Source: a virus (Duplodnaviria; Caudoviricetes). Taken from it: a stretch of DNA of 64,000 nucleotides. Both the position numbers and the translations under genes were made by a program. Positions 23,523-38,774 of the stretch are shown piece by piece; the first letter of the stretch is position 1; each line of letters begins with the position of its first letter. The stretch is taken from positions 1,462-65,461 of IMG/VR virus record IMGVR_UViG_3300043466_002015; one strand, 5' to 3'. A model generated the notes under the pieces. That model saw only the letters and a list, made by a program, of their open reading frames with translations. It had not been told where the DNA came from and did not search any database.

Positions 23523-24073
23523 TCCGTCACCTCCACGCCAAAATGCGAACCGTCATCAAATACCTTTTCGTTGAAACTATCACTCCAACCGTGTGCTCCG
23601 TGAAATTTGTCTGAATAACAACAAGGTGGATTAAAATCGTTTGGATCTTCTTTCCATCGCCACCATCGATCCCGATGCGGCTTGAACTCCTCAGCATTGG
23701 CAAATTGTCGATATTGCTTCGGCTTCTCGATCTTGCGTAACACAACAGCCCATCCGGTACTTGGATGAGGGCCTTCCCATGCTTCAACGGATCGATCAAT
23801 CAGCAACCTGTATTCACCAGCTACTACGACACCAATCCGCACCAACTCCCATCCTTCTGGTACGCCTGGGATGCCTCGAAAACCTTGCTCGTTGCTCATT
23901 TCTTCCTCCACATCGCATAAGAAATCAAACCACCACCAGCCACCGCGAACGGAACCCACCAGGGTATGGCGGATTCCACTAGGTAGCGAAATTCGAATAA
24001 GCTCATTGGTTTTCCTTTGCAATTCGGAATATCGTGAATTCAACATATCACCGTGATATGCGGAGTTCCGCAT
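23519..24073 (-). CDS. Hypothetical protein (true start may be the internal MSNEQ)
   Basis: ORF track. GGAAGAA precedes the internal ATG near 23899. Confidence 0.5.
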   Translation of the reverse strand: MRNSAYHGDMLNSRYSELQRKTNELIRISLPSGIRHTLVGSVRGGWWWFDFLCDVEEEMSNEQGFRGIPGVPEGWELVRIGVVVAGEYRLLIDRSVEAWEGPHPSTGWAVVLRKIEKPKQYRQFANAEEFKPHRDRWWRWKEDPNDFNPPCCYSDKFHGAHGWSDSFNEKVFDDGSHFGVEVTE

Positions 24074-24088
24074 ACTATTTGTTATGTT
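24041..24088 (+). mobile_element. Degenerate short attC-like site at the left end of array 1
   Basis: TATGCGG-AGTT-CCGCATA hairpin, 6-nt spacer, then GTTATGT. The R'' box is imperfect. Confidence 0.4.
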
Positions 24089-24516
24089 GACCTATGTAGA
24101 TACTTTTCTCTTAGGCCATAGCTACTCTTGCTGGTCTTGTCTTTGTAGTTGCCTTCGTGGTCGCGATACATTTGCACATCCGGCACGAACGTGTAAACAA
24201 ATCCTCCATCGCTGTAGTCAACATCTACTACAGTGCCCTCAACACCTACAGCCAGATTTTTCTCTGATCCCGACCAGCCACCTTCGCATTTGATTTTCTT
24301 GACAATGATAGCACGCTCCCCTTTTTTGATTGGAGAAAATCGCATTAGCAGTGCCTCGCTCTGTTCGACCAGTTTGACTAGGTAATAGTCCAATGGACCC
24401 CTAGCGAAAATCTCCTGAGCTTGCTGAATATGCTTCACTCCAGCCTTCATTCTCTCGACGAAATCCGGCAACATAACAACGGATTCCACCGAAGCCTCAT
24501 TAACGTCTGTTTTCAT
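24082..24516 (-). CDS. Cassette-borne hypothetical protein
   Basis: The stop lies in R' (G|TTA). The start and GAAAGG RBS lie inside the attC loop. Confidence 0.7.
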   Translation of the reverse strand: MKTDVNEASVESVVMLPDFVERMKAGVKHIQQAQEIFARGPLDYYLVKLVEQSEALLMRFSPIKKGERAIIVKKIKCEGGWSGSEKNLAVGVEGTVVDVDYSDGGFVYTFVPDVQMYRDHEGNYKDKTSKSSYGLREKYLHRST

Positions 24517-24559
24517 GGTTTACCTTTCTTATTCGGCTCGGTGAATCCGAGCGTTATCG
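24471..24559 (+). mobile_element. attC site
   Basis: ACATAAC-AACGGATTCCACCGAAGCC...GGCTCGGTGAATCCGAGC-GTTATCG, with extrahelical bases on the left arm. Confidence 0.85.
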
Positions 24560-24793
24560 TGACAAAACCTCTACCGCATCTTTCGCCTCGTCGTGGAGTC
24601 GCTCTCGCCACGCATCCGCTACTTCATTCTTAAACTGCTGTGGAGACCAACCAGACTCAATCGCGAGCGTTACCGCTTCCCAAACTGCATCTTCTACCTT
24701 AGATGGCGTCCGAACTCCCATTCGCAATCCAGAACCGTCAAACCCTAAACTCAAGCCTAGTGGTTTCATAAATACACCTTTGCACGATAACAA
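24554..24793 (-). CDS. Cassette-borne hypothetical protein
   Basis: Stop lies in R' at 24554. Confidence 0.65.
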   Translation of the reverse strand: MLSCKGVFMKPLGLSLGFDGSGLRMGVRTPSKVEDAVWEAVTLAIESGWSPQQFKNEVADAWRERLHDEAKDAVEVLSR

Positions 24794-24874
24794 ATCGGTA
24801 AACCGAAGTCGCCGGTCACCTAGTTCTCAAGCCCAAGTCTCTTGGCGGCGACTCGGTTACCGCTGGCGTTCATT
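24785..24874 (+). mobile_element. attC site
   Basis: CGATAAC-AAATCGGTAAACCGAAGTCGCCG...CGGCGACTCGGTTACCGCTGGC-GTTCATT. Confidence 0.9.
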
Positions 24875-25205
24875 TGAGCTTTATGCAGTCGTTGCACACA
24901 AAACTTGACTGTTTTCTGGTCTTACCGTTATCACACAACAAAACGTGCTGCTCTCTTACTTTTGTGCGTTCCTGCGGAAACTTCCAACGTTTGCATCTTG
25001 GGCATTGTCGCTGGCAAAGATGATGAATGCTCGTCATGTCATGAGCCCATTGATGCCACTGCAAATAACCATCTGGCGGCATCGAATCAATTGCGTAGCA
25101 CGGTCCTGGCTTCATCCCCATTTTCCACCAAATGAACAATTGATTGGACCGAAGCCGCGTTCGATCCGTTTTCTGATGGTTAATCGACCGACGCGGCTCG
25201 GTCAA
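24870..25205 (-). CDS. Cassette-borne Cys-rich hypothetical protein
   Basis: TGA stop lies in R'. CxxC pairs. The start lies within the attC and is uncertain. Confidence 0.65.
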   Translation of the reverse strand: MTEPRRSINHQKTDRTRLRSNQLFIWWKMGMKPGPCYAIDSMPPDGYLQWHQWAHDMTSIHHLCQRQCPRCKRWKFPQERTKVREQHVLLCDNGKTRKQSSFVCNDCIKLK

Positions 25206-25219
25206 TCAAAGCGTTACTC
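25131..25219 (+). mobile_element. attC site
   Basis: AATGAAC-AATTGATTGGACCGAAGCCGCG...CGCGGCTCGGTCAATCAAAGC-GTTACTC. Confidence 0.9.
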
Positions 25220-25681
25220 CGCCACATCGCACGAAAACAGATTCGGTGCCTGTCCACCCCAGAACTCTTTCGTGTCCAAACGCTCCATGTCGTCGCGAGT
25301 CGATCGCACGCGACAGTAGGGAGCTGTCACGACGACAATTCCTCTCGAGTTGTAGTGTCGCATAATCACTCCAGCGTGATTTCTCCACGGCCACTCTGAC
25401 CCATTGCCCAACAGCTTCCAACCGCAATTGTGCATCCTTCCATCAGACTCATCCCGCTTCCACAATATCGCCTGAGTCAAAACCAAGTCTCCCTTGTTGT
25501 CAAATACGCGATTGATCTCAATACAATCAACTTCATACTCGTGCGTTTCTGGCATCAAAGGAGACCCTAAAAAAGAAAGTAGCGCGGCAAGCATCATGCT
25601 TTTCCTGTAACAAAAAGGACCGTGTTTTTGTTTCAATCCCGATCGGTAAACCCGACTACCAAATTCGCCCGCAAACGTCAT
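25214..25681 (-). CDS. Hypothetical protein, possibly exported (start probably MMLAALL)
   Basis: ORF track. The stop coincides with the terminal R'. Confidence 0.55.
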   Translation of the reverse strand: MTFAGEFGSRVYRSGLKQKHGPFCYRKSMMLAALLSFLGSPLMPETHEYEVDCIEINRVFDNKGDLVLTQAILWKRDESDGRMHNCGWKLLGNGSEWPWRNHAGVIMRHYNSRGIVVVTAPYCRVRSTRDDMERLDTKEFWGGQAPNLFSCDVAE

Positions 25682-25744
25682 TTCGTTACCGAGCGGGTTG
25701 CATATTTAGGAAGTGTCGGGTGTTTGTGAAAAGTCCCTACAAAA

Positions 25745-25916
25745 TGGATCAGGCAGGATTTGCACCTGCTAACCGTAGCGTAAAAGGCTATCGGGATTCG
25801 TCACTGGCTTTACCGCGAATCGAGTCAGTCCTTATTTACCACTTGTGCCGTTGGTGTTCCGCTAAGACCCGTTATCGAACACAGTAGTAGCATGTCACTG
25901 TCCATGCCGCTGATCC
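25745..25916 (-). ncRNA. tRNA-like RNA 1 (172 nt) with a greatly expanded central region
   Basis: Acceptor GGATCAG/CTGATCC+A, D-stem GCAT/ATGC, T-arm GCAGG-TGCAAAT-CCTGC. Confidence 0.65.
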
Positions 25917-26074
25917 GTAAATGCGGCACTCTGTCCGCCCGTCACGCACACCCTGGTCGGGCCGACGCTGCTAGTACGTTTCGCTCGTTCTTCTATCCTC
26001 GAACAGGATGCCAGTACGTCAGCTGTATCGTCATACAACCTTCTAGCAACGGGCACCAATTTTTCAGATGCCAA

Positions 26075-26177
26075 TGGATCAGGCAGGATTTGCACCTGCT
26101 CGCCGGAGTCAGCAGTAGCCGTCGCCACAAGGGCATGAAGCCAATACTCCTGCGTGTACCCACCACGCCGCTGATCC
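26075..26177 (-). ncRNA. tRNA-like RNA 2 (103 nt) with an extended anticodon arm
   Basis: Same acceptor and T-arm as RNA 1. D-stem GCGT/ACGC. Stem GGAGT/ACTCC encloses 36 nt. 5-nt variable loop. Confidence 0.7.
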
Positions 26178-26266
26178 ATAAAATCCCCATCGGTAAAATC
26201 GAAAATTTCCGCCCATTCTCAGGACGACGAATATTTTACCCGCATTGCCCCGGTGACGCAAGAGCA

Positions 26267-26515
26267 TTACCAATTATCTCCATCTGTTCCAAGTTCAGAG
26301 GTGCCACCGAGGAGATTTGCGTTGCGAGATTTTAAGCCGCGATGGGTAGTTTTTCTCGATGGGGAAGAAGTGTCGGTGAGGTAACCCGATTGCCGCATTT
26401 CCATCAGCACCGAAAGCTTGCAGCTATGGCAATACTTGTAGCCCACCACCGCAGAAAGCCTACCGCACTTATCGCACGGCCGCATTTGTCGTTCCGGCCT
26501 CTTGCCCATTGTCAT
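26267..26515 (-). CDS. Small zinc-finger protein
   Basis: CDKC...CHSC motifs and a GGAG RBS. Confidence 0.6.
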   Translation of the reverse strand: MTMGKRPERQMRPCDKCGRLSAVVGYKYCHSCKLSVLMEMRQSGYLTDTSSPSRKTTHRGLKSRNANLLGGTSELGTDGDNW

Positions 26516-26622
26516 ATCTCCACTGACAACCTGTCAGCTAAAGTGGCAACGTTGCCACAAGCTGTACAAATCACCTCCAAAGATTACTACCTGGAGGTAA
26601 TTTGCACCACCAATTTGAAATT

Positions 26623-26856
26623 CTACCTCTCCCTAGGCCACTCAAAGCACTGCGACAAACTACGTACAATTAACTCAACAGTTCCCCCAGCTTCAAGGTA
26701 CGCAATAGCCGCAGCTTGCAATTCCCCCTCAGCCCTCTCAAGCTCTTCGCCAGCCTTTATGCCGTCCTTGTCGTACCTCTCGGTCTGACACTTTCGACGA
26801 TACGTGCTCAGCTTGCTTTCAGGCACCCGATCAGCACCAATGTAGTAGATCTTCAT
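26623..26856 (-). CDS. Hypothetical protein
   Basis: 77-aa ORF with an AGGAG RBS. Confidence 0.6.
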   Translation of the reverse strand: MKIYYIGADRVPESKLSTYRRKCQTERYDKDGIKAGEELERAEGELQAAAIAYLEAGGTVELIVRSLSQCFEWPRER

Positions 26857-27175
26857 ACGCTAACTCCTAACCAACATCCTATCAGCATGGACCCGATGCA
26901 GCAAGTCAAATATTGTATTGGGTGGAAGGGGATATCGTTGACGTCGCAGCGGTGGGGTGGGGGTCCGGATCGGTTTCCGGTGGGCTTCGGCTCGGTCTTC
27001 GGTTCGGTGATCCTCGAGGTCAGCGGTGAGCGTCATCGAGTCGGCAGCACTGCAATGCGTGCCAAATAGAGTGACTACCTCAGCACCTCGAGAAACACAG
27101 GGAAAACACCGAGGAAACACACACAAATCACCGTGCACAGTAGCGTATACCCTTCGTGACCTGCCAGTGTGACAC

Positions 27176-27826
27176 TCAGCCCTCGAGCATCTCGGCGAGG
27201 AGTGATCGCACCTCGTCGATCGCCAGCCGCTCGCGGCGGATCATCTCGCGTTCATCTTCGAGCGTTGCCGAAGCTTTGGCGGCGACATCCACATACTTCG
27301 CATAAGCTCTAATGCTCGTTTCCAGCCAGCCTAAGGCAGCCCATGACGGTGCTGGAGATAGCGACTTGCTGAGGTCGACCACAGAGGTCTCACCGACTGT
27401 GCGAACCACCGAGAGCCTATTTGCTTGTACCCACTGCACCTCAGCGGCTAGTGGCGCGTTGGCTGGTAAGTGATTCCAGTCTGCCGGGATGTCGCTCAGC
27501 CCGGTGACGGCCGACTCGTCGCGTGCGCTCGCTGCCGTCTGAGCCGACTGTCGTTCAGCGGTAGCGGTGGGATTGGCTTCGCCCCCCACCACTTCCCCCA
27601 CCTCTCTCGTCGTCTCCTGTGGTGGTGTTGCTGGTCCTGGCGAGGTTTCTGTCGGCGGAAACAGTTCATCGAGGATTTGATATGCCTCGAGGTGCGCATC
27701 TTCTCGCTGTAGACCTCTTTCCCTCGCTTCGCGAATTAAGCGATCCTTGACTATCGAGGCTTCTTCCCACTGTCCTTGCGCGATCAGTCGTTTGCTGAGT
27801 GCCATCTTCAGTGCTTTTAGATCCAC
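27176..27826 (-). CDS. Hypothetical helical protein (possible small terminase-like)
   Basis: 216-aa first gene of the leftward unit, with an AAGGGG RBS. The function is only a positional guess. Confidence 0.5.
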   Translation of the reverse strand: MDLKALKMALSKRLIAQGQWEEASIVKDRLIREARERGLQREDAHLEAYQILDELFPPTETSPGPATPPQETTREVGEVVGGEANPTATAERQSAQTAASARDESAVTGLSDIPADWNHLPANAPLAAEVQWVQANRLSVVRTVGETSVVDLSKSLSPAPSWAALGWLETSIRAYAKYVDVAAKASATLEDEREMIRRERLAIDEVRSLLAEMLEG

Positions 27827-28160
27827 GGTTACCCCTTCGCGCTATCTCTGAGCGCAACAATTCCTAGTAATCCGCAGGTTATTTATCGACGCTGCAACCG
27901 GGATTAATCCCCCGACTAGCCTGCTGGCTACCCCTCACGTCTATCAGCAGTGTAGGCTTTCGCCTGCTCACTGAAAATTGATCTCACTCCGGTGAGATCG
28001 CTCGGCATCGTCTCGGTCTGTGCTCTCGCCTTAGACTCTCGGTGACGCTGCACACCGAATAATTTTTACCAAAAATATCCGATGCGATCTGCACTGTCAA
28101 ATCATTGGTCAAACACACTTTATAAGACGCATGCCAAATAGAATATCGGAAATACCCTAC

Positions 28161-28189
28161 TTGACACCACAAGGGCTTGCCGATACAGT
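28161..28189 (+). promoter_or_regulatory. Sigma70-type early promoter
   Basis: TTGACA-17 nt-TACAGT upstream of the plus-strand operon. Confidence 0.75.
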
Positions 28190-28256
28190 GCAACACCCCA
28201 CGGGGGACGGCGGAAACGCCGATTCAAAAACAGTTCAAAACACAGGAGAAAGAAAC

Positions 28257-28769
28257 ATGGCAGCACGCAAACCATTCAAGGTTCAGAGTCGAGAGCAAGG
28301 ACGGGGTCGCATCAGCACCAACTCGTTCGCAACATTGAAAGAGGCACAGGACTTCGTCGCCAGCCACTGGCAAGGCGCTGACTACATCGACGGGGAAGCA
28401 AGCTTCCATACCGATTACTGCGACTTCAACTGCGTTGGATTCGTGCTGGCGGACATCGGCGAGCGTTACTGGGTTGATCGCGAAGGGTTTTATGAGTGGG
28501 AATGGAAAGACCTCGATGGCTCGAAGCGGTTCACCGTGGTTGCCTGGAGCGATGAGGAAGACCGATCGCCGCAGAAGACCGTCATTGCAAGTTTCGGCAC
28601 ACGGGAGCAGGCGATTGCCGAAGCGATCAGGTTGTGCAACGACGCAACGACGATCCATGTTGAAGACAACGGCAAGAACATTGGCTGGGCGCACGACAAG
28701 GACTTTTACGACGATGTTCCATTCGAGCAGGTTGCGTACCCTGCCGATGATTCACCGGTTCCTTTCTAG
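28257..28769 (+). CDS. Early hypothetical protein
   Basis: ACAGGAGA RBS before ATG 28257. Confidence 0.7.
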   Translation: MAARKPFKVQSREQGRGRISTNSFATLKEAQDFVASHWQGADYIDGEASFHTDYCDFNCVGFVLADIGERYWVDREGFYEWEWKDLDGSKRFTVVAWSDEEDRSPQKTVIASFGTREQAIAEAIRLCNDATTIHVEDNGKNIGWAHDKDFYDDVPFEQVAYPADDSPVPF

Positions 28770-28820
28770 GTCGAAACCCCTTCGGGGGTCCAATGGTACA
28801 GTGCCACTGCTGATGAGACC
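28769..28820 (+). ncRNA. Hammerhead ribozyme, type II
   Basis: GGTC-GAAA-CCCC-TTCG-GGGG-TC^CAATGG-TACAGTG-CCACTG-CTGATGA-GACC. The complete catalytic core is present, with a GUC cleavage triplet ending at 28790. Confidence 0.92.
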
Positions 28821-28841
28821 AATACAAACAGGAGAAAGACA

Positions 28842-29129
28842 ATGAGTACAGCAACAGGCAGGCAGGGTTTTGGATTCTGGGACACAACGTGCTACCCGAT
28901 TGGGGGCTGTTTCCGCCGCTTTGGGCAGAACGAAGCCGTTACCGACATCGCGAAATTGGATCGGGCATATCAAGGGGCAACCCACACGGGAAAGATCATC
29001 AGGGATGGGAAGACTCTCGCGATTGCTTTTGGCATCACCTCAGTAGAGTCGAGGGCTCGTAAGGCGTTCGAACCGAGCGAGCAAAGCGACTGGGCGTACA
29101 GCCGCGCTGAGGCTGGGTACGGAGATTAA
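28842..29129 (+). CDS. Early hypothetical protein
   Basis: ACAGGAGA RBS. Confidence 0.7.
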   Translation: MSTATGRQGFGFWDTTCYPIGGCFRRFGQNEAVTDIAKLDRAYQGATHTGKIIRDGKTLAIAFGITSVESRARKAFEPSEQSDWAYSRAEAGYGD

Positions 29130-29177
29130 CTAGCAGGGGTTAGGGCTAGTGCGGCAGGTCACCCGACCTGCGTCCCC
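29129..29177 (+). ncRNA. Unassigned pseudoknot motif, copy 1
   Basis: ACTAGC-AGGGGTTAGG-GCTAGT-GCG-GCAGGTC-ACCC-GACCTGC-GT-CCCC. Confidence 0.75.
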
Positions 29178-29207
29178 AGTTCATTCACATTCACAGGAGA
29201 TTTCCAC

Positions 29208-29591
29208 ATGCTTACGAACTTTCAAAGTGCGATCGACTTGGCCTCCAATGGTCGCAAACGGCTCCAGAAGACGAGCGAGACACGTTACGTGTATTTGAAC
29301 CGAGCTCGCCGCGCGTGCCACGATGCGATGGCTAGGCTTGCTGAATCGGGCGAATACACACACTGCCACAGAAGCTTCCTCATTCGCGACACGTTGCTAG
29401 TGGTCGAACAATGGTTTCCTGATCTCGGCACCTTCGGAGTTGAGAGCATTTATCAAGGCAGCAACCAGCGATCGCCAGCGATCGACTATTTGAACACAGG
29501 TGATGGCTACGAGCCGACCATCATGTACGTTCGGGGTCGGTTCCGCATCGGATGCTGGGCGGACATTGTCGAGCGCGGCAGCTACAACTAA
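29208..29591 (+). CDS. Early hypothetical protein
   Basis: ACAGGAGA RBS. Contains a YLNTGDGYEPTI segment. Confidence 0.7.
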   Translation: MLTNFQSAIDLASNGRKRLQKTSETRYVYLNRARRACHDAMARLAESGEYTHCHRSFLIRDTLLVVEQWFPDLGTFGVESIYQGSNQRSPAIDYLNTGDGYEPTIMYVRGRFRIGCWADIVERGSYN

Positions 29592-29617
29592 CACACAACA
29601 CACAGGAGATTTGGAAA

Positions 29618-30283
29618 ATGAGTCACGAAACGACACTTCATCCGTTTGAAGCCGCAGGACTGGGGCAAGCCCCCTTTCGGCTGCTCGCGATCCGCAAGAA
29701 TGTCTACTCCGCAGCACCCGGGCACAGCCAACCAGGAGGCTGCTGCTCGTATTGCTCTCAAGGCATCCTGTGGGAGTGCGTGATCAGATCTAGAGACGAT
29801 AAGACGTTTGTCGTTGGTCAAGATTGCGTGAGAAAGCTCGACAGAGGCGACAACAAGCTGGCAACCGCTGTTACGCGAGAACTCGCTCGCATCGCCAGGG
29901 AAGAGCGAGAAGCCGCGAGAGAGGCACGATGGCAAGCTCGGCGGGTCGCTCGCGAGGCGGAGCTAGATCGCCAACGTGAAGTCAACGGTGGATTGACGGA
30001 CAATGAGGTTGCGCAGCAGGCTCGCGAGAAGGCTGAGGATGAGGCTCGAAGAGTCTGGCGTGAGCGGAACTGGTGGCTGATATCGGTCCTTCAAGGGCAG
30101 TCCGGCGAGTTCTGCCGAGGTATGTGCGATACGTTGGAGCGCGGACCTGTCAGCGGGCTCTCGGAGAGGTGCCAATCGATCATGGCTGACGTCTACGCCA
30201 AGTCGTTCGGTCGCAGGGGGTCGAAGAAATACGATGCGGCAATCGACAAATTTACGGAAAGAGTCGAGTCGAGAGACCGTTGA
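29618..30283 (+). CDS. Early hypothetical protein, Cys-containing N-terminus plus coiled coil
   Basis: ACAGGAGA RBS. CSYC...VGQDC motifs. Confidence 0.7.
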   Translation: MSHETTLHPFEAAGLGQAPFRLLAIRKNVYSAAPGHSQPGGCCSYCSQGILWECVIRSRDDKTFVVGQDCVRKLDRGDNKLATAVTRELARIAREEREAAREARWQARRVAREAELDRQREVNGGLTDNEVAQQAREKAEDEARRVWRERNWWLISVLQGQSGEFCRGMCDTLERGPVSGLSERCQSIMADVYAKSFGRRGSKKYDAAIDKFTERVESRDR

Positions 30284-30351
30284 GGCTCGAGGGGGTTAGG
30301 TCGAGTGCGGCGAGCCTTTAGGCTCGCGTCCCCGCTGACACTGTGTCAGCA
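30281..30351 (+). repeat. 71-bp exact direct repeat, copy 1 (copy 2 at 33025-33095)
   Basis: The sequence is identical at both positions, and similarity continues through GGAGAGAGACGATGA. Confidence 0.9.
30285..30333 (+). ncRNA. Unassigned pseudoknot motif, copy 2
   Basis: GCTCGA-GGGGGTTAGG-TCGAGT-GCG-GCGAGCC-TTTA-GGCTCGC-GT-CCCC. Confidence 0.75.
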
Positions 30352-30383
30352 CAACCGTGAGACGTTGATTTTGGAGAGAGACG

Positions 30384-31211
30384 ATGAAAACGAAGACGAA
30401 GACGAAGACAAGAAAACAAATCAAGACTAAGGCGGAAATTGAACTGGCTAGGCGAATTAATTTCAGAGGACAGTACGTAGATTCGTTGCGATTGGCTGGC
30501 GAAAAGTATCTTAAGATTGCGGGCGGAGGCAGTTTGCTTGACGTGCAATCGATTCTGCAAGAAATAAATCGTCGTCACGCCGCTGCCGTGAAGTCTGACT
30601 GGGGAATGTCTCCGGCAAGTTACAAAAAGCTTCGAGACAAAGCGGCACAAATCCTTCGAGGCTTTACTACTGGTTATTCCATGGGAGAAGTGAAAAAACT
30701 TGTCATCGGCGAAAAACCGTTTCTGACGGTTGATAATACTCGAGAGTACGCCCGTAGTTCCAAGTACACAGCAACACACGGTGAACTGATTGTCACGATT
30801 TCGCTTGCCGAATTGCGTAAGATCGAGTGCGTAGAAGGTGTGTGGACTGTTCGCCTCGCAGGAGGGCAAGCCCAATGGTTGCGCGCCAAAGGGCTGAAAG
30901 GCAATTGTCGAATCGGTTGGGTGAAAGGATACCTTGTCGGATCCTCGCACGGCGCAACCCTCGATGAATGCCAACTGCTCGAGGCAGGAAAAGCAACTCG
31001 AGGCGACGATGGAAAGATCAAGCGATTTGACAGATTCATCGGCTTGCGAGACCGAGTTGCAGCAGGCGCATGCGAAGCTGGCGTTTTGGCATTCTGCGAG
31101 CGTCATGGGCTCAACCCCGACTTCGGCTATCGCATCGATTATCTACTCAGCCTCAAGGATGACCTCGCTGCATCGTACTTGAATCGAGTGGCTCGACTGC
31201 TCAAGCGATAG
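30384..31211 (+). CDS. Early hypothetical protein
   Basis: 275 aa with a GGAG RBS and a C-terminal GAC..G...FC motif. Confidence 0.7.
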   Translation: MKTKTKTKTRKQIKTKAEIELARRINFRGQYVDSLRLAGEKYLKIAGGGSLLDVQSILQEINRRHAAAVKSDWGMSPASYKKLRDKAAQILRGFTTGYSMGEVKKLVIGEKPFLTVDNTREYARSSKYTATHGELIVTISLAELRKIECVEGVWTVRLAGGQAQWLRAKGLKGNCRIGWVKGYLVGSSHGATLDECQLLEAGKATRGDDGKIKRFDRFIGLRDRVAAGACEAGVLAFCERHGLNPDFGYRIDYLLSLKDDLAASYLNRVARLLKR

Positions 31212-31335
31212 TACTTGGTTCTCCCGATAGTTTCCGCACTACTATCGGAAAGTCTCACAAAGTGCGGCGCGGTGCTCCCGATGCGTATTCGGGGGACTTT
31301 TCAACCGTGCCAATTACAATTCTCAGAAACCCTAA

Positions 31336-31364
31336 TTGACACGGTGTCGCGTTGACGATACATT
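31336..31364 (+). promoter_or_regulatory. Second sigma70-type early promoter
   Basis: TTGACA-17 nt-TACATT. Confidence 0.75.
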
Positions 31365-31409
31365 GGTAACTGCACTTCGCAGCACCAACAAAAACACACA
31401 GGAGAATTG

Positions 31410-31880
31410 ATGATGACTGACAATTTGTTTGAGACCGACCCCCGCAGTTTCGCGCTCAATTTGGCAGAAAACCAAGTGGTTTCCGCTGATCACCTGCTGC
31501 TCTGCGCGATCAAGTACATGAGTCATGACGATGTTCGCGACATGCTCGACGCAAATGGTCTCTCCCCAAGATTCGACGAAGAAGAGGTGTGCATCGATTG
31601 CGGTGGCGAAAACATCGAAGAGGGCACCTGCACCGACTGCGAGCGAGAAGATTGGTTGTCGAAACACGACGATGGTAATCACGACATCGATGCGATGAGG
31701 ATCGATATCTCCAATAACAACCTTGCAGTCGGCGACGACGACAGGGCTGGCGAATACGAGCACGCTGAAATTGTGAGAGCATCGGTCGAAAACGGACAGA
31801 TAACGCAAGCGCGAGAACAGGCTGAGCGGTACGGTTATTCGCAGGAATGGGTCCAAAGCCTCGTAGATTGCGAGGGCTGA
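31410..31880 (+). CDS. Early acidic hypothetical protein with a zinc ribbon
   Basis: ACAGGAGA RBS. CIDC...CTDC motifs. Asp/Glu-rich. Confidence 0.7.
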   Translation: MMTDNLFETDPRSFALNLAENQVVSADHLLLCAIKYMSHDDVRDMLDANGLSPRFDEEEVCIDCGGENIEEGTCTDCEREDWLSKHDDGNHDIDAMRIDISNNNLAVGDDDRAGEYEHAEIVRASVENGQITQAREQAERYGYSQEWVQSLVDCEG

Positions 31881-31882
31881 TA

Positions 31883-31929
31883 GCTTGGAGGGGTTAGGCC
31901 AAGCGCGGGAGTCCTCGGGCTCCGTCCCC
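31883..31929 (+). ncRNA. Unassigned pseudoknot motif, copy 3
   Basis: GCTTGG-AGGGGTTAGG-CCAAGC-GCG-GGAGTC-CTCG-GGCTCC-GT-CCCC. Confidence 0.75.
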
Positions 31930-31996
31930 AGATTGTGAATCATGGCACATCCTCCATGGTGGCAAGCCGAGCCGAAACGGCACAGGATTTAATACA

Positions 31997-32800
31997 ATGA
32001 AGACTGAACGACAATGGCAAGCAAGATTCCGAAACAGCATTGGTGGAATCCTCTTTTGTGGTGCGCGGAGACGAGGTCGAGGCAAGTGGCTAAGTGGTGA
32101 TGATGTGCCTCAAGAAGTCCGAGACTACCTACACCTAAAACTTGCTCAAGGTGCTGGTCGGCGATACTACCAACGCGACTGGAAGTCTTTAGAACTGATG
32201 AACGACGAATGTAGACCGGAATCGCATTTCTATCGGCAGTGGTTGGTGGTCGGTTTCAGAGTCAACGAGGAAGCCATCCGGCAGCCCGCAAAGATCGAAG
32301 TTGACCTCGGCAAACTTCGTGATGTGCTGCGGGGCATCAACGAAGGTCGCAACCTCGATAGTTGTTTTGACGTAGTGTCATTCGGCTGGAAAGATGCCGA
32401 TCTAGACCCATCTGGTTGCACTGGCATCAAGTCGCTGGACCGGATCGAAGGAAAACGGGTTGTCGTTACTGTTGGTGGACACAAGACGTTTTGTGACCCT
32501 TGCCAAGATGAAGACAGTGGTACTGAGATGTCCGACAGTGACTGGTGCGCACACAGCATCGTTTGCGAATGCGGAACATATTGCGAATGGACCGGAGATG
32601 ATTGGTGCGCTAGTTTCAGCGAGATAATCAAGGTGCCTGTCGTCCATAGCAAAGGCGTTGTGGACTACGACAAGACCTCTCGACGCATCATCAAAGCGGC
32701 AGAAAAGTGTATCGCTCCAATTGCCGACAACTGGGCCGACACCGACAAAAGCCTCGACGAACTGTACAACGAACTACACAAGGAAAGAGAAGTATCATGA
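31997..32800 (+). CDS. Early hypothetical protein
   Basis: ACAGGA RBS, 267 aa. Confidence 0.65.
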   Translation: MKTERQWQARFRNSIGGILFCGARRRGRGKWLSGDDVPQEVRDYLHLKLAQGAGRRYYQRDWKSLELMNDECRPESHFYRQWLVVGFRVNEEAIRQPAKIEVDLGKLRDVLRGINEGRNLDSCFDVVSFGWKDADLDPSGCTGIKSLDRIEGKRVVVTVGGHKTFCDPCQDEDSGTEMSDSDWCAHSIVCECGTYCEWTGDDWCASFSEIIKVPVVHSKGVVDYDKTSRRIIKAAEKCIAPIADNWADTDKSLDELYNELHKEREVS

Positions 32801-33009
32801 GCGCGAGTGAAAGATTAGGCGAGATCGCACGACGAGCCAAGGAGACGCAGGAAGCCATAGCGAATGCTGATGTTATGCAAGATATGCAAAGCGTTTCAGA
32901 AGTACTCCGACTGATCGCAATCATTCAAACACTGTCTGCCGATGTTCTGAATGAATTTGCAAGCTCAATCATTCCGTTGCCTATTTACGATTCGAGGATA
33001 GACCCATGA
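32797..33009 (+). CDS. Early hypothetical protein
   Basis: ATGA overlap with the upstream stop. Confidence 0.6.
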   Translation: MSASERLGEIARRAKETQEAIANADVMQDMQSVSEVLRLIAIIQTLSADVLNEFASSIIPLPIYDSRIDP

Positions 33010-33028
33010 AGGGTCGAAGACGAGTGAG

Positions 33029-33077
33029 GCTCGAGGGGGTTAGGTCGAGTGCGGCGAGCCTTTAGGCTCGCGTCCCC
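33029..33077 (+). ncRNA. Unassigned pseudoknot motif, copy 4
   Basis: Identical to copy 2. Confidence 0.75.
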
Positions 33078-33126
33078 GCTGACACTGTGTCAGCAAGCAG
33101 TGAGACGTTTGATCAGGAGAGAGACG

Positions 33127-33642
33127 ATGAGTACAGTGATCGAAGTAGTAACGCCAACCGACACAACCCACCACATTGAGTCCGCTACGGACAGAGCGAA
33201 GTTTCTGCGGCGCGTCTTGCGGGAGGATGGATGGACAATTTCTGCAAGATCTTCGGAGGATTGGCAGTTTGTCTTCAGGAGAACGATTAGGGGAAAACCA
33301 GGGGATCCAAATGTGGATGTTATCGTCCGCATCAAGGACAAATTTTCTTTGGTCGGCAAATGGGGAAATCAGAAGTCATTTCACGATTCCGATGAAGTGA
33401 TTGTACCGAAACCAACTCGCCTCTGGCTTGCTTACGGATCCCAACAAGCCGCAGTCAAGTTCCTGCTTGAAGGATGCCACTTCATCATCAGCGGGTCATC
33501 CGGCTCAACCAGCAGTAGTAAGCACGGGCTAGCATTCGTTTCATTGCAGGTGTTGAAAAAAGATGGATACGGTACTGTAGAAATCGGTGGAGGTTCCGTG
33601 TACGTCAATGGTCGCATGGTTTGTTGTGGATCGGTTGAGTAG
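33127..33642 (+). CDS. Early hypothetical protein
   Basis: CAGGAG RBS before ATG 33127. Confidence 0.7.
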   Translation: MSTVIEVVTPTDTTHHIESATDRAKFLRRVLREDGWTISARSSEDWQFVFRRTIRGKPGDPNVDVIVRIKDKFSLVGKWGNQKSFHDSDEVIVPKPTRLWLAYGSQQAAVKFLLEGCHFIISGSSGSTSSSKHGLAFVSLQVLKKDGYGTVEIGGGSVYVNGRMVCCGSVE

Positions 33643-33729
33643 TGACGTTTCGCGGGCATCGCTCACTGTCGCAAGGTCAGTGGGCGAGCCCCTGCAACGT
33701 CGCAGGATTGCTTCACACAGGAGATTAAT

Positions 33730-34068
33730 ATGAGCACGACGAGACTAGACGATTTTCGCACAGAGCATCTAAGTGGCGAGTCACTTGAGATCGCCAAGAT
33801 TGTAAGGCAAGTGATTGGAGAAGACGCTTTTGGTGGTGGATGCCGCGCGTTCTGGACACCTGAAGAATGGCGGGCTCGCAAAGAGGAGTATGGCACCGAT
33901 TCTCTGTTAATACTGGTGCATGACGGTGGCGACTTGGCGCCCTACTGCAACTGGGATTACGAGCAGTACTCGCTGAGCGACCAGCTTGACGAAGCGCTGA
34001 CAAAGGCTGGCTACTATTACGAGCAATGCACTTGCTGGTATTCAGCAGTTTATCGCTTGCCATCCTGA
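33730..34068 (+). CDS. Early hypothetical protein
   Basis: ACAGGAGA RBS. Confidence 0.7.
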   Translation: MSTTRLDDFRTEHLSGESLEIAKIVRQVIGEDAFGGGCRAFWTPEEWRARKEEYGTDSLLILVHDGGDLAPYCNWDYEQYSLSDQLDEALTKAGYYYEQCTCWYSAVYRLPS

Positions 34069-34154
34069 TCAGATTGCGCGCTCGAGGGGGTTTGCCCGGA
34101 CCCCTGAGAGTCTGCAATTTCGCAGTGTTGATTTAACCTTTGGAGATTTTAGCA

Positions 34155-34577
34155 ATGATCAATTCGATTTGTGTCAGTTTCATTCCAGATATTTTGCTCG
34201 ATTCTTTTCTTGACGAGGGCGACTTCCCTTTTTTTGCATTTCGGTGGGCTGCAAAATTCGAGGACTCTACGGCGATTTCTCGAGAGCGAATACGCATCGA
34301 GCAGACTTATGACTCTAAGTCTATTGACATCGGATTCGGCGATCACTCGTTTAAGTGCAACAAGACAATCTGGATCGATCTGCCAGCAAGTCTCAGTTAC
34401 GACGAAGCAAAAGAAATTGGTGAACGCGCATCTTCCTTTGTGAGGGGCTGGGTGCTTGGGAAACTGTCGACCATTCCAAACTGCGAATATTGCGGGAATC
34501 AATGCACCGACGACAACGGATGCGACGCGCACATCAGCGGTGGGGATTCTGCTGCCGCTTCCGTCGAATGTAAATAA
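34155..34577 (+). CDS. Early hypothetical protein
   Basis: GGAG RBS and a C-terminal Cys cluster. Confidence 0.6.
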   Translation: MINSICVSFIPDILLDSFLDEGDFPFFAFRWAAKFEDSTAISRERIRIEQTYDSKSIDIGFGDHSFKCNKTIWIDLPASLSYDEAKEIGERASSFVRGWVLGKLSTIPNCEYCGNQCTDDNGCDAHISGGDSAAASVECK

Positions 34578-34589
34578 AGGAGATTGATA

Positions 34590-35030
34590 ATGACCTTTGA
34601 AATTCTAAAAACGGTCACAGGGAAACGATTTGAAAGTCTAGGTACTTATCTGCTTCCGAGGCTGCACCTAGTGGTGAGCTATACGCGAGGCGGCGTTAGC
34701 GACATCACAGGCGAGCCATGTGAACGAGGTTACTGCATATCGGTGCAACACGATTGCTGGGCTGATGAGGGCTTTCGCTCGTTCATCGTCGACGGGAAAG
34801 GTGATCCTGTCGAAAGCCTGTTGCTATCTGACAGTTTTTCGAAAAAAACATTGGACAACCTAGTTTTGCAAGTCCGAAATGGAATCCATGATGCCATCGT
34901 GGCATCGCTGTACGCAGAGGCAATTGCATCGAGACCGCAATACGGTTGGGCAAGGAAGATCTTGCCATTGGAGGAGCCTGTCGCTGCGTCAGTGCGATTT
35001 GATGGCAACGTAACGGACGATTTTTTTTAA
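34590..35030 (+). CDS. Early hypothetical protein
   Basis: AAGGAG RBS. Confidence 0.65.
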   Translation: MTFEILKTVTGKRFESLGTYLLPRLHLVVSYTRGGVSDITGEPCERGYCISVQHDCWADEGFRSFIVDGKGDPVESLLLSDSFSKKTLDNLVLQVRNGIHDAIVASLYAEAIASRPQYGWARKILPLEEPVAASVRFDGNVTDDFF

Positions 35031-35047
35031 CCACAGGAGGTGTTGAC

Positions 35048-35185
35048 ATGGCAAGATGGATTTTGATATCAGTGGTGTGCTGCTGCGGTTGCGCAACACA
35101 CAAGGCGAAGATCGTAATTACCAGGGTCCATGGAGAACCCGCGATCAGTATTGAGATTGAAGAAAAGGAAAGTTGCCGTAAGTAA
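35048..35185 (+). CDS. Small putative lipoprotein (45 aa)
   Basis: Manually read MARWILISVVCCCGCATHK..., with an AGGAGG RBS and a lipobox-like GC. Confidence 0.5.
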   Translation: MARWILISVVCCCGCATHKAKIVITRVHGEPAISIEIEEKESCRK

Positions 35186-35199
35186 TCAGGAGACATGGA

Positions 35200-35379
35200 A
35201 TGTTGGTGTTAAGGCGAACAATTGGAGAATCGGTTATAATCGCGGGCAACGTGAAGATAACCGTAATTGAAGTCAAAGCTGGCAAGGTTAAACTCGCGAT
35301 TGATGCTCCTAGGGACATAACAATCGACCGCGAGGAAATCCAGTTGGCGAAGCTTAGGGAGGGATTGAAAGATGCGTAG
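35200..35379 (+). CDS. csrA: Carbon storage regulator CsrA/RsmA homolog (59 aa)
   Basis: Manually read MLVLRRTIGESVIIAGNVKITVIEVKAGKVKLAIDAPRDITIDREEI, which matches the CsrA signature. Too short for the ORF track. Confidence 0.92.
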   Translation: MLVLRRTIGESVIIAGNVKITVIEVKAGKVKLAIDAPRDITIDREEIQLAKLREGLKDA

Positions 35380-35839
35380 CGACATTCACATTCGGTGGTT
35401 GATTCGCAGGGATCTAGCTACTGTGCTCGATATTGAACACCAAAGCTTCGAGTTTCCTTGGCAAGAGAAAACATTCATCGATACGTTGCGTCAACGCAAT
35501 TGCATCGGTATGGTCGCTGAGTACGAAGGTGACGTGGCTGGCTTTATGGTCTACGAACTCCGTAGAACGAGTATCAGCCTGCTTTCCATTGCCGTGCATC
35601 CTGACTATCGGCGAATCGGAATCGGAACGGCTTTAATTGCAAAACTTTTAACGAAGCTTAATCACGTCCGCAGGAATCAAATTGATGTGCAGGTTCGCGA
35701 AACGAATCTTGGCGCGCAGTTATTCTTGCGTGATTCAGGATTCCGCGCCGTAGCAGTAGTGAGCAATTACTACGATGATTCGGATGAAGATGCATACCTG
35801 TTCAACTATGAAAAGGCATCGCAACAAGTCGTCTCGTAA
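35372..35839 (+). CDS. rimI: RimI-like GNAT N-acetyltransferase
   Basis: IE..SF.FPW, IAVHPDYRRIGIG, VRETN..AQ.F and YY.D..EDAY motifs. Confidence 0.85.
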   Translation: MRSDIHIRWLIRRDLATVLDIEHQSFEFPWQEKTFIDTLRQRNCIGMVAEYEGDVAGFMVYELRRTSISLLSIAVHPDYRRIGIGTALIAKLLTKLNHVRRNQIDVQVRETNLGAQLFLRDSGFRAVAVVSNYYDDSDEDAYLFNYEKASQQVVS

Positions 35840-35911
35840 CGAAAAGCATTTAATGACCAGACGCTGACATGTATCGTGCATGCCAGCGTCTTTATTTTGA
35901 CATGGCTACAG

Positions 35912-36214
35912 CTAGCGATTCCGGCAAGCTGGACCAACGCATCGAGGAGGTGCGACAGGCAATCTCGTCGAGTACCTCGTATATGTCACTCCTCGCGATC
36001 GATAGCTCACGGACTGCAATCCGTTGCTGCCGACTCCATACTGGTAGCTACCAATCTGCCGATAAACCGCTTGACTTCGGTCGCTGCATTGAACGAAGGT
36101 GTAGCCTCCAATTGTGCGAGTCACGCATTCTCCCGATGGAAGATCATCCTGCGAAAAAGCAGGACTTGCCAACAAGATCACCATCGCCACCAAAAAAACA
36201 AAACGTGCAGTCAT
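35912..36214 (-). CDS. Small exported hypothetical protein
   Basis: Signal-peptide-like N-terminus, AGGAG RBS, C-terminal CVGPAC. Confidence 0.6.
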   Translation of the reverse strand: MTARFVFLVAMVILLASPAFSQDDLPSGECVTRTIGGYTFVQCSDRSQAVYRQIGSYQYGVGSNGLQSVSYRSRGVTYTRYSTRLPVAPPRCVGPACRNR

Positions 36215-36254
36215 AATTGACTCCTAAAAGAAAACATACTTGGACACGCTTCCT

Positions 36255-36812
36255 TTATGCGTGCCTCTCCGATTTGCGATCCTGAGCAAACTGCATCAGA
36301 TCGCTCGGCTGAACGCGCCACATAGCACGCTTAGCCCCCTCAGGTCGCACATCGATAGCAGGCAACTCTCCGCTATCAATCCACGTCTGAACAGTCCTGC
36401 GGTTGACTCGCATCCGCAGTGCTATTTCTTCCACTTTGAGCAGTGTCGTTGGCATATATTTTACTACCTCGTCAATTTCGATTCGCTTCATCGCCCTCGG
36501 TGAAGTAAGCATTAAATACGCCTCAAGATCCCAGTCGTAAAGTCTACGCTCAGCTAGCAACGCCAGTTGCCTAGCCTCCGGCCACTCCTTGGCGGAACCA
36601 AGTTTTTCGTGACACCAACGGCACACAACCAGCAAAGCAAAAAGCTTGTCGAGGCTTTTCTGACGATGCACTCCTCTCGATATCTCATGCACATCCAGAG
36701 GAGCCGATGCGCGATCACAAATCTCGCATCTTCCCACCGACTCGCGGAGAGCATCTCGAATAGGCTTGCATTCAATAAACCTAGCCTTTGCCTTGCTGCT
36801 CATTCTCCGCAT
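36255..36812 (-). CDS. HNH-like domain fused to an excisionase-type HTH
   Basis: CEIC...HE...CRWCH motif, then LKVEEIA..MRVNRRTV..WI.SG.LPA. Confidence 0.7.
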   Translation of the reverse strand: MRRMSSKAKARFIECKPIRDALRESVGRCEICDRASAPLDVHEISRGVHRQKSLDKLFALLVVCRWCHEKLGSAKEWPEARQLALLAERRLYDWDLEAYLMLTSPRAMKRIEIDEVVKYMPTTLLKVEEIALRMRVNRRTVQTWIDSGELPAIDVRPEGAKRAMWRVQPSDLMQFAQDRKSERHA

Positions 36813-37048
36813 TAGAATGGCGTCCCGTCGTCAGGCTTCGACCTGTTGCTGTTTCCGCCTTCGCTTGCTTGCTTCGGCTTGAAGGACAGGCTCATGAATT
36901 TGCCGTTTTTGCCTTCCTTGATCCATGCAGATAGCCACATGCCTTCTCCGTTGATCATCGCGTCACCCTTGTAGTCAGGATGCTTCGCGTCCTCCTTTTT
37001 GTCATTCTTAAATAGACTTCCGCTGTTATCTCGTTGTTCGTACGCCAT
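36812..37048 (-). CDS. Small putative ssDNA-binding protein
   Basis: GSLFKN...HPDYKG...LSAW motif and an acidic PF C-terminus. Confidence 0.6.
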
Positions 37049-37050
37049 GA

Positions 37051-37434
37051 TTATTCCTCTTGCGAACTATGGGTTTTAGCATGGTGGCACTGCTCGCAAA
37101 GCACCACCAGACTCTCTTCCTCGCAAAGCAATCGCTCTACGAAACCCGCCAAGTCGCTAAACGAACGCAGCGATCCTGCGGGAATTGTGTGATCCACTTC
37201 CACGTTTTTCTGTGGGAACCATTTACGGCATTCCTTGCATTGGAACTCCCACTTCAGTCGTTTGTTTTCGCTTTGACTTTCTCTCCGTGCAGCCCGCAAC
37301 ACATTTCTGCGTGGAGCCCACTTGCGAGACATCAACCGAAGGTTAGATCGAATAAATCCCCAGAACTGAGCCTCGGTCATGGTGTTGCCCGCTCGAGTCC
37401 TCGGAACCCTTTGCTTTTTCGGTTGCTTCCGCAT
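37051..37434 (-). CDS. HNH endonuclease
   Basis: CKEC...VEVDH...LCEQCH..KT. Confidence 0.85.
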
Positions 37435-37475
37435 CGTGAAGTCTCTCTATTACACGTTTGTATCTTGGAGCACCT

Positions 37476-38774
37476 CTAGCCGTCTTTCGTAATGATCAAT
37501 TCCACTTTTGAGTTGTTGTTTCCAGTAGCGTTCACTATTTCAGTTATCGTATGACCTGAGTAAAGATCCCGGATCAGATCGCAATCGTCATACGTCACTA
37601 CCCATTCCTGGCTTCCACACGTAATCCATTCTTTAAGTCGCATGTGATCATGTGTCAAAAACGAGTGCCGATATAAGCTCTCGCCAGCTATCGCATACGG
37701 AGGGTCAGCAAAAACAAAATCACTGCAACGAAGTTCAATTTGCTCGAAATCACAATGAACAATTTCTACTCCATTCAGCAATTTAGAAAACGCCTGGATA
37801 GTTCGGACTATTCTGTCAGCGTTCCAGCGGCATCCAATTTTGTATTCACTGTCTTGGCGTTTACCTCCCTGCGGTCCACCTGCCAGATAACCGATACCAG
37901 CATGTGAACAGTATTGCAGAATAAGCTTATTCATGGCGACAGTCACGGCATCGCCCTCTATGCCATCAAGATCCTTGGCTTTATACCAATCCTCGACGTT
38001 CGGTCTCCACTTGCTTACCTGCGAAACAAGAAGCAAAGGAGTGTCTCGAACGCACTTCCAAAGCGCAATTAGCGAAAAATCCTTATCCGCAAGTAAAACC
38101 GACTTAAATTGTGTCCTCATCAAATTGCTGATTGCTACGGATCCTCCACCGAGAAAAGGTTCGACGTATCTCTCTGGCGAAAACAATCCTCCACCGGGAG
38201 GCATTACCCTTTCTAACTGTCTCAGCAATTTTGACTTCCCCCCTGGATACCTAAGTAGATTAGCCCCAGGCTTGCTGCGTCTCATTTCAGCCATAGGAAA
38301 TAAGTCTTGCTGTTCAATTTGATGGTTCATGTGCTTTCCTTTCAAAGCTTTAACTAGCGGCTTGGATTGCACATCCTCCCAGCTTATCCACCCGAGTAGC
38401 GACACCACCCCAGAGCGAACAACAGCCATGACAAATCTATGGCATTTCTTTTTTTCCAGTTGTTTTATAAGAGGAATCTTTTGAGATGCCGTAGATTTAA
38501 CATCAACCTTTAGACCTCCGCACACAAAATCAAACCCGTTGTCATAGTTTCTCCCGAAATCAACGTGTTTGCCCATGTATTTCGCAAATGCGCATTCTCC
38601 AATTAGCCCAACCATGTGAGCTTCCTTAGACAGCCCCTTACCCCACTCATCAGCTCTTGCATTGTCACGTTCTTGTCGTCGTTTTGCTTCCTCTTGGCAA
38701 AACACCTCCCATCCACTCTCGATTTGAATATCGATTTCAGTCGGGCTAACACGACCCTTTGTTTCAACAAGCAT
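37476..38774 (-). CDS. N6-adenine DNA methyltransferase (Dam/D12 class) with an N-terminal PD-(D/E)xK-like domain
   Basis: RYPGGKS, EPFLGGGSV and DPPY motifs. N-terminal GE.AFA...GFDF....VDVKS. Confidence 0.85.
   Translation of the reverse strand: MLVETKGRVSPTEIDIQIESGWEVFCQEEAKRRQERDNARADEWGKGLSKEAHMVGLIGECAFAKYMGKHVDFGRNYDNGFDFVCGGLKVDVKSTASQKIPLIKQLEKKKCHRFVMAVVRSGVVSLLGWISWEDVQSKPLVKALKGKHMNHQIEQQDLFPMAEMRRSKPGANLLRYPGGKSKLLRQLERVMPPGGGLFSPERYVEPFLGGGSVAISNLMRTQFKSVLLADKDFSLIALWKCVRDTPLLLVSQVSKWRPNVEDWYKAKDLDGIEGDAVTVAMNKLILQYCSHAGIGYLAGGPQGGKRQDSEYKIGCRWNADRIVRTIQAFSKLLNGVEIVHCDFEQIELRCSDFVFADPPYAIAGESLYRHSFLTHDHMRLKEWITCGSQEWVVTYDDCDLIRDLYSGHTITEIVNATGNNNSKVELIITKDG

Follow-up and report, generated by a model that had tools for sequence, protein, structure and literature searches.

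The DNA analyzed here, referred to as the window, is a stretch of 64,000 nucleotides (nt) covering nearly the whole of the IMG/VR virus record IMGVR_UViG_3300043466_002015, a freshwater phage record of 65,461 bases that is rated complete. Four copies of a short pseudoknotted RNA motif lie between small genes on its plus strand, and an original prediction had pointed them out as an unassigned element and a candidate new ribozyme. Our results indicate that the motif is probably a variant of the pistol ribozyme without the P1 hairpin, which would cut polycistronic phage mRNA at a G^U step, catalysis being predicted from the sequence. We judge that the motif derives from a pistol, and it is predicted to work like one. 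The motif appears to be a strong candidate self-cleaver; the proposed new class is not supported, the Pistol core lying in register, and the motif would rather be an undescribed architectural variant of pistol.

The four copies were read directly in the sequence at the predicted sites (Table 1). All of them share one layout: 6 nt, a purine, GGGG, TTAGG, 6 nt complementary to the first six, GCG, a hairpin, GT, and CCCC. The elements GGGGTTAGG, GCG, and GTCCCC are invariant among them, and the complementary strands ACTAGC/GCTAGT, GCTCGA/TCGAGT, and GCTTGG/CCAAGC are exactly those given originally. Copies 2 and 4 are identical and belong to a duplicated cassette (30274-30351 versus 33018-33095, 78 nt, 96%), an intergenic duplication that extends to 30357-30387 versus 33100-33130 (84%) and measures about 110 nt overall. 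The independent copies are therefore three in number, as had been recognized. Exact matches to GGGGTTAGG in the window are four, precisely the four copies; with up to one mismatch, 8 were found versus 6.83 expected, which is no enrichment by itself. A covariance model of the full motif (R1), run with the filters off, scored the four copies at 61.4-65.8 bits and found no other site in the 64 kb up to E = 10.

The whole window gave no match to Rfam at gathering thresholds. When Rfam was run in E-value mode over 28000-34000, the top three matches were those of the Pistol model (RF02679; 68 positions, gathering cut-off 34.5 bits) on copies 2, 4, and 1, spanning only model positions 22/24-68, and the motif copies gave no match to another ribozyme family at E ≤ 10. 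Among the 18 sites that the motif model found in five further phage records, Pistol matched 15, with per-genome E-values of 8e-6 to 0.015, and gave only 2 further weak matches elsewhere (E = 0.31 and 2.3). Twelve of these 15 alignments, like 3/3 in the window, begin at model position 22-24. The motif is thus no longer unassigned: Pistol is the only ribozyme family matched, the match is in register, and the unpaired core is identical to the consensus.

The register extends across P2, the UUAGG loop, the pseudoknot 3' strand, GCG, P3, GU, and P2'. In pistol terms, which are used from here on, GGGG/CCCC of the motif is P2, and UUAGG is the internal loop with active-site nucleotides. The helix originally called P1, whose 3' strand is formed by the six bases after UUAGG, is the 6-base-pair (bp) pseudoknot helix; GCG is the conserved GCG of the active site; the variable hairpin originally called P2 is P3; and GU is the two-nt cleavage junction. 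All unpaired core positions (UUA-R-G, GCG, and the 2-nt GU junction) equal the Rfam consensus. Among 60 distinct sequences from phage and metagenome contigs used for covariation, 4 of the 6 helix pairs show compensatory changes, the helix being 6 bp long in both the motif and the Rfam consensus, and the second helix pair is C-G in 60/60, a position given as upper-case C/G by Rfam. P3 begins with U.G in 7/60 sequences, like the consensus. The loop is UUAGG in 59/60 and UUAAG in 1 (purine G in 59, A in 1). The U, U, A, and final G of the loop and GCG are invariant in the 60 sequences, which is not independent evidence because the search patterns fixed those positions (the purine as A or G). In 63/63 distinct sequences, GT precedes a P2 strand that is paired throughout.

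The comparison was also made in the opposite direction. With a pattern taken from the Rfam consensus and scanned against viral contigs, 13 canonical pistols were obtained from other phage contigs, with scores of 39.7-71.3 bits. A model of the shared part only, from P2 to P2' (R2), had as its five best matches in 85 kb five of these 13 Rfam-confirmed pistols, in register. The relationship between motif and pistol is visible from both sides and is weak in score. The canonical pistols above the cut-off lie in 10 phage loci (L334, L342, L345, L367, L371, L376, L397, L400, L409, and L418), with three within about 2 kb in L400, two in L334, and the 71-bit example in L345. Since L400 and L334 hold several, multi-copy arrays are also a trait of canonical pistols. 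No canonical pistol was found in 3 genomes reached via motif loci or in a subsequent set of 151 genomes of one phylum.

The structure was recovered in searches that did not demand it. The pattern of the first IMG/VR scan fixed only GGGGTTAGG-N6-GCG-N10-30-GTCCCC and required neither the helix nor P3, and 30/35 matches outside the window had a perfect 6-bp helix, a linker of exactly 1 nt, and a P3 hairpin. The same pattern in prokaryote genomes (596 Gb) gave 78 matches in 77 stretches, 2/78 being structured. Both of these are on one 9-kb contig binned with a Crocinitomicaceae metagenome-assembled genome, from which no host is drawn. Bacteroidota rarely use strong GGAG sites such as those seen here. 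The pattern of a second viral scan did not constrain the 3' part at all and left one P2 position of four free; of the 102 matches listed in new loci, 2 had a perfect helix, in each case together with P3, GU, and a paired P2. A metagenome scan added 37 structured matches in 26 loci among the 130 matches listed. The number of helix pairs in 691 loose-core matches from all DNA collected was bimodal, one peak, at 2-3 pairs, reflecting chance and 80 matches having 6/6, and all 63 distinct sequences with 6/6 helix pairs also had P3, GU, and 4/4 P2 pairs. Only the counts of 30/35, 2/78, and 2/102 and the 691 loose-core matches, the last of which still demanded GT, are free of pairing bias.

Covariation in the 60 sequences bore out the predicted pseudoknotted RNA motif. 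Changes on both sides were seen in 12/15 pairs, and the covariation score was 0.638 versus 0.158 for shuffled alignments (0/500 shuffles reached 0.638) and at most 0.119 with the partners slid. All 5 counted P3 pairs covary. The supposed pairing between GGGG and CCCC proved real, as 3/4 P2 pairs covary, and the variants AGGG/CCCT (3 sequences), GGGA/TCCC, GTGG/CCAC, GGGT/ACCC, and GGGG/CCCT (one G.U pair) came from the flanks of pattern matches and from the looser scan and were not forced by a pattern. GGGG/CCCC is otherwise nearly invariant (56-60 of 60 per pair). The motif is 45-69 nt long, mostly 45-49 nt. In addition to the U.G pair that opens P3 in some sequences, the outer helix pair is G.U in 31/60. 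The element works as RNA of the plus (sense) strand, because G.U pairs are frequent and would not pair in DNA or in the complementary strand.

The main departure from pistol lies at the 5' end. In the canonical consensus, the 5' strand of the pseudoknot is in the P1 loop and is followed by about 13 nt (the P1 3' strand and the linker) before P2. The motif has neither the P1 hairpin nor the A-rich linker, and a single nucleotide takes their place; this linker is exactly 1 nt in 60/60 sequences (U, A, or G; never C). The helix 5' strand is a plain upstream strand with no P1 loop, so it is strictly not the pistol pseudoknot, and because it is joined to P2 by one nucleotide the motif is a simple H-type pseudoknot. 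The motif layout is obtained exactly from that of the Rfam consensus when about 13 nt are deleted, comprising the P1 3' strand and the greater part of the linker. There is no space for a P1 hairpin outside coding sequence, because the upstream stop codon abuts or overlaps the helix strand. The 26-mers upstream of the motif fold only slightly better than random ones (mean of -4.2 versus -3.0 kcal/mol).

Unrelated hairpins are found immediately 5' of three motif copies (L010:6215-6232, L015:4261-4278, and L017:8088-8111). They raise the Pistol score to 25.5-32.9 bits by mimicking P1, with seemingly full-length alignments. A displaced P1 was considered for them and rejected, as their loops are unable to pair with the helix 3' strand.

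The motif is not filed as a member of the Pistol family, because P1 and the linker were looked for and are absent and the scores lie under the Rfam cut-off. It had been proposed that a match to a described Rfam family would remove the novelty of the motif, and this came about in part: Pistol is matched, under its gathering score and with one defining stem absent. Since the core matches Pistol in this way, the novelty is reduced to that of an undescribed architectural variant. In pistol, the role of P1 is limited to stacking on the distal end of the pseudoknot helix, which has P2 running beside it, and the linker contacts P1 through an A-minor interaction (PMC11300833; here and below, published reports are cited for the parts of them that were accessible). 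By these reports, the parts missing from the motif are peripheral in pistol, and the parts kept are its active site.

Several observations weigh against the assignment to pistol. P1 and an A-rich linker with several conserved nucleotides are two defining features of pistols, and both are absent; a one-nucleotide bridge between the helix and P2 in a pistol fold is an assumption. Copy 3 had no Pistol match reported at E ≤ 10, and in the five other phages the Pistol scores are 18.5-32.9 bits, no copy reaching 34.5. R1 found 0/13 canonical pistols, which is expected because the topology is changed, and which still counts against a simple family relationship. The reciprocal scores of R2 are weak (10.3-14.5 bits, E = 0.8-5.5). 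The folding energy is no better than that of shuffled sequences (z of -0.05 to -0.73), so it is the covariation that carries the structure. The rows of two alignments, A1 and A2, were filtered for pairing, and their 100% pairing is true by construction because the row filter required it. Finally, the cells counted for covariation are not independent events, because many carriers belong to one phage clade.

The position of the motif relative to genes is regular. Of 40 instances (in the window and 30 other loci), 33 come after an open frame of 50 codons or more with its stop at -30 to +8 nt relative to where the motif begins, and in 26 of these 33 the stop either ends at most 3 nt from the first helix strand or falls within that strand. 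In 36/40 instances, the next 140 nt contain a ribosome-binding site and a start codon, and each of the 40 examined has the same orientation as the sense strand of its neighbouring genes. In the window, the first base of the helix 5' strand of copy 1 is the final base of a stop codon, and a GGAG-type ribosome-binding site with an ATG lies 30-67 nt 3' of each copy. The other phage records have 3-5 copies each, clustered within 2-4 kb. Homologues of the gene at 29208-29591 (65-80% amino-acid identity) follow a motif copy in at least three other phages (L010, L015, and L025), where the helix and P3 sequences differ and the complementarity is kept.

Known ribozymes are found in the same arrays. A Twister-P5 ribozyme (L011) and two Hammerhead_II ribozymes (L016) score above the Rfam cut-offs on the same strand, about 0.4-1.5 kb from motif copies. 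In the window, a type II hammerhead-like element lies in the intergenic slot before copy 1 and starts on the final base of a stop codon TAG. Its core is complete, with CGAAAC, GUC at 28788-28790, and CUGAUGAG (the CUGAUGA part) at 28810-28817, and it is the sole CUGAUGA/GAAA arrangement in an intergenic region of the window. It had E = 0.12 in a 111-nt search and was missed entirely by a 6-kb search. The hammerhead named in the original prediction thus has a complete core and a score under the family cut-off. The predicted slot, after a stop codon and before a ribosome-binding site as for the hammerhead, agrees with the stop codons, the GGAG sites, and the hammerheads and twister of these arrays.

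Table 1. Coordinates of the motif copies, the parts of copy 1, and nearby elements in the window; cut sites are predicted.
Feature	Position	Strand	Preceding stop codon	Pistol score (model positions)	R1 score	Predicted cut	Remarks
Copy 1	29129-29177	+	TAA 29127-29129	21.8 bits (22-68)	64.5 bits	G29172/U29173	Minimum free energy structure = helix + P3
Copy 1, helix 5' strand	29129-29134	+
Copy 1, linker A	29135	+
Copy 1, P2 5' strand GGGG	29136-29139	+
Copy 1, UUAGG	29140-29144	+
Copy 1, helix 3' strand	29145-29150	+
Copy 1, GCG	29151-29153	+
Copy 1, P3 hairpin	29154-29171	+
Copy 1, GU	29172-29173	+
Copy 1, P2 3' strand CCCC	29174-29177	+
Copy 2	30285-30333	+	TGA 30281-30283	23.7 bits (24-68)	65.8 bits	G30328/U30329
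Copy 3	31883-31929	+	TGA 31878-31880		61.4 bits	G31924/U31925	47 nt
Copy 4	33029-33077	+	TGA 33007-33009	23.7 bits	65.8 bits	G33072/U33073
Hairpin GCTGACA-CTG-TGTCAGC	30334-30350	+					Directly after copy 2
Hairpin GCTGACA-CTG-TGTCAGC	33078-33094	+					Directly after copy 4
Type II hammerhead-like element	28769-28827 (core to 28820)	+					Hammerhead_II 17.9 bits, cut-off 37, full-length alignment

In the proposed mechanism, each copy would be a compact pistol of 45-49 nt from which the P1 hairpin and the A-rich linker have disappeared, in the order helix 5' strand, N, P2 5' strand, UUAGG, helix 3' strand, GCG, P3, GU, and P2 3' strand. The active-site three-way junction, formed by P2, P3, and the G-C pairing of the final G of UUAGG with the C of GCG, would be intact, and the pistol-core fold would have the 6-bp helix stacked on P3 with P2 alongside. 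In pistol, the active site is such a junction of P2, P3, and the G33-C41 pair (PMC6795133). It includes purine 32, G33, G40, C41, G42, and G53-U54; G40 serves as general base, both G33 and G42 are required, and position 32 accepts A or G, the A32G change keeping activity (PMC6154101). By analogy with the pistol literature, the first G of GCG might act as the general base, the purine and G of UUAGG might position a hydrated Mg2+, and the 2'-OH of the G in GU might attack its own 3' phosphate. The cut would fall between G and U, four nt before the motif 3' end.

Polycistronic transcripts of the plus strand would in this way be severed between genes. The folded ribozyme, carrying a 2',3'-cyclic phosphate, would form the end of the upstream mRNA, and the downstream mRNA would start with 5'-HO-UCCCC, followed after copies 2 and 4 by the hairpin, five bases into the 3' cleavage product, and then by the ribosome-binding site. 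A 5'-OH end alters the susceptibility of an RNA to 5'-end-dependent RNases in a host-dependent manner. A doubtful extension of the proposal is that the motif is a natural minimal catalytic core of the pistol fold with translational gating of its activity. Ribosomes terminating on the upstream gene would mask the first helix strand and the P2 strand and unfold the ribozyme, so that intergenic cleavage would occur only on transcripts, or at moments, without translation of the upstream gene. Gating would then set the ratio of joined to separated mRNAs, and the hairpin past the cut site would define the fate of the released downstream mRNA.

Other explanations than a self-cleaving pistol variant have to be weighed. 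The motif could be a conserved structured RNA without self-cleavage. It might bind a protein of the phage or the host, direct processing by an RNase of the host, or serve as a 3' or 5' structure that stabilises the RNA, and its resemblance to the pistol core would be a relic or a coincidence. This explanation, which we consider unlikely, would account for GGGG/CCCC being more conserved than a plain helix requires. It also agrees with the Pistol scores under the cut-off and with the absence of P1 and of a linker found in all pistols described in the accessible part of the class report (PMC4604425); self-cleavage of the motif is only predicted, and several ribozyme-associated motifs failed to cleave when tested (PMC6765202). 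However, all unpaired nucleotides of the pistol active site are kept in the same order and spacing (GU in 63/63, UUAGG in 59/60, GCG fixed by the pattern), and a protein site would not be expected to recreate a catalytic core together with a 2-nt junction. The motif moreover alternates with proven ribozyme classes in the same arrays.

An origin independent of pistol, in which a self-cleaving ribozyme of a new class had converged on a pistol-like junction, seems very unlikely. The simple H-type pseudoknot in place of the three-stem pistol, the failure of R1 on canonical pistols, and an Rfam match that spans only 45/68 positions under the cut-off all speak for it, and look-alike folds with different chemistry have a precedent in the pseudoknot hammerhead and pistol (PMC11300833). 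Against it stand the conversion of the Rfam consensus layout into that of the motif by one deletion of about 13 nt and the shared 6-bp helix, invariant C-G, UUARG, GCG, GU, 4-bp P2, and occasional U.G start of P3. Descent from pistol is the simpler account, because a single deletion suffices and these features are shared. Finally, an element of DNA or of the other strand, such as a recombination site, an operator, or a promoter/terminator module, would suit the 3-5 repeats within 2-4 kb per phage, the duplicated cassette of copies 2 and 4, and the palindromic hairpin after about half of the copies, but is extremely unlikely given G.U pairs that would be mismatches in DNA or antisense RNA (31/60 for the outer helix pair and 7/60 for the first P3 pair), the sense-strand position of 40/40 instances, the lack of a T-run after the motif, and promoter- or terminator-like sites in 23500-37500 that are not above shuffled expectation, none of them at the motif.

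The hairpins directly after copies 2 and 4 have counterparts elsewhere. A second hairpin lies 0-4 nt past the motif in about half of 39 distinct copies, with a stem of approximately TGACAC/GTGTCA and a loop of 3-5 nt (window copies 2 and 4, L006, L009, L015, L018, L019, L020, L022, L025, L037, and L198); window copies 1 and 3 lack it. Being palindromic at the DNA level, the hairpin could also be a protein site. N4-like hairpin promoters were considered as an explanation and dropped, as the 4275-amino-acid (aa) protein of the phage shows no RNA polymerase match in Pfam or PHROGs. This protein is encoded by an open reading frame at 49858-62685 on the minus strand and has a polyvalent-protein ADP-ribosyltransferase domain (PF18760, E = 2.7e-32), DUF7178, and a phage L5 gp82-like domain. 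A scan of 23500-37500 for sigma-70 promoters and terminators gave no excess over shuffled expectation.

The small plus-strand genes form a block at about 28,100-34,100 among minus-strand genes that include those for a terminase, a DNA methyltransferase, and a helicase. None of the 10 open reading frames between 28131 and 34068 matched a Pfam family or a PHROG. The longest gap in the block, at 31212-31410 (plus strand), contains two hairpins, with a short T-run after the second, and TTGACA-17-TACATT at 31336-31364, downstream of both. The gap may divide the block into two transcription units, with two motif copies in each.

A look-up of sequencing runs listed only DNA runs from lakes and freshwater, one of them perhaps the source of the phage, and none of RNA. 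A blastn search of a common copy against 50,697 GenBank phage records returned chance partial matches only (E ≥ 3), and the sole intergenic match, in Mycobacterium phage Soul22, was rejected, as it does not contain the motif. A tblastn search of the gene at 29208-29591 against phage records gave only weak matches in Pseudomonas phages (48% over 40% of the protein). No description of a pistol without P1 was found in the literature searched, which excluded the 2015 discovery paper and all supplements. The compact P1-less form is therefore undescribed as far as searched, and the 2015 supplement could hold such variants.

If the motif cleaves, P1 and the conserved A-rich linker of pistols would be dispensable, and a bridge of one nucleotide could suffice to close the active fold, the result being a natural self-cleaver about 45 nt long. 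No new ribozyme class would be added even then. The standard Rfam model would be missing a whole subgroup, with 3-5 copies per genome, in a freshwater phage clade and some unrelated phages. The sequences would also provide a well-covarying set for asking why phages cut early polycistronic mRNAs between genes, as is also the case for hammerhead, twister, and pistol.

Among known systems, the motif is closest to pistol (RF02679), a class defined by P1, P2, P3, a pseudoknot from the P1 loop, a 2-nt GU junction, and ten conserved nucleotides (PMC4604425). Both have a 4-bp closing P2, a UUARG loop, a 6-bp helix formed with the segment between P2 and P3, a conserved C-G pair in it, GCG, a variable P3 hairpin, and a strict 2-nt GU junction, and both are found in phages, between genes and beside other ribozymes. 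The motif differs in having a 1-nt linker and a plain upstream helix strand in place of the P1 hairpin and A-rich linker, a P2 that is almost always GGGG/CCCC, and a P3 that mostly starts with G-C and not U.G; its length is 45-69 nt versus the 68 positions of the Rfam model, and its scores are under the Rfam cut-off. The type II hammerhead (RF02276) occupies the same slot between stop codon and ribosome-binding site, both at 28769-28827 of the window and in L016, whereas its core and fold are unrelated to those of the motif. The pseudoknot-containing hammerhead is similar as a small phage-associated self-cleaver in which a 6-bp pseudoknot helix stacks on a hairpin, with another helix alongside; however, its core is CUGAUGA ... 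GAAA, and the motif has neither element and keeps the pistol loop and GCG (PMC11300833). Theta ribozymes, minimal HDV-like ribozymes of gut phages, belong to another ribozyme class and are found beside viral tRNAs, but they offer a precedent for a stripped-down phage subfamily of a known class (PMC10879173).

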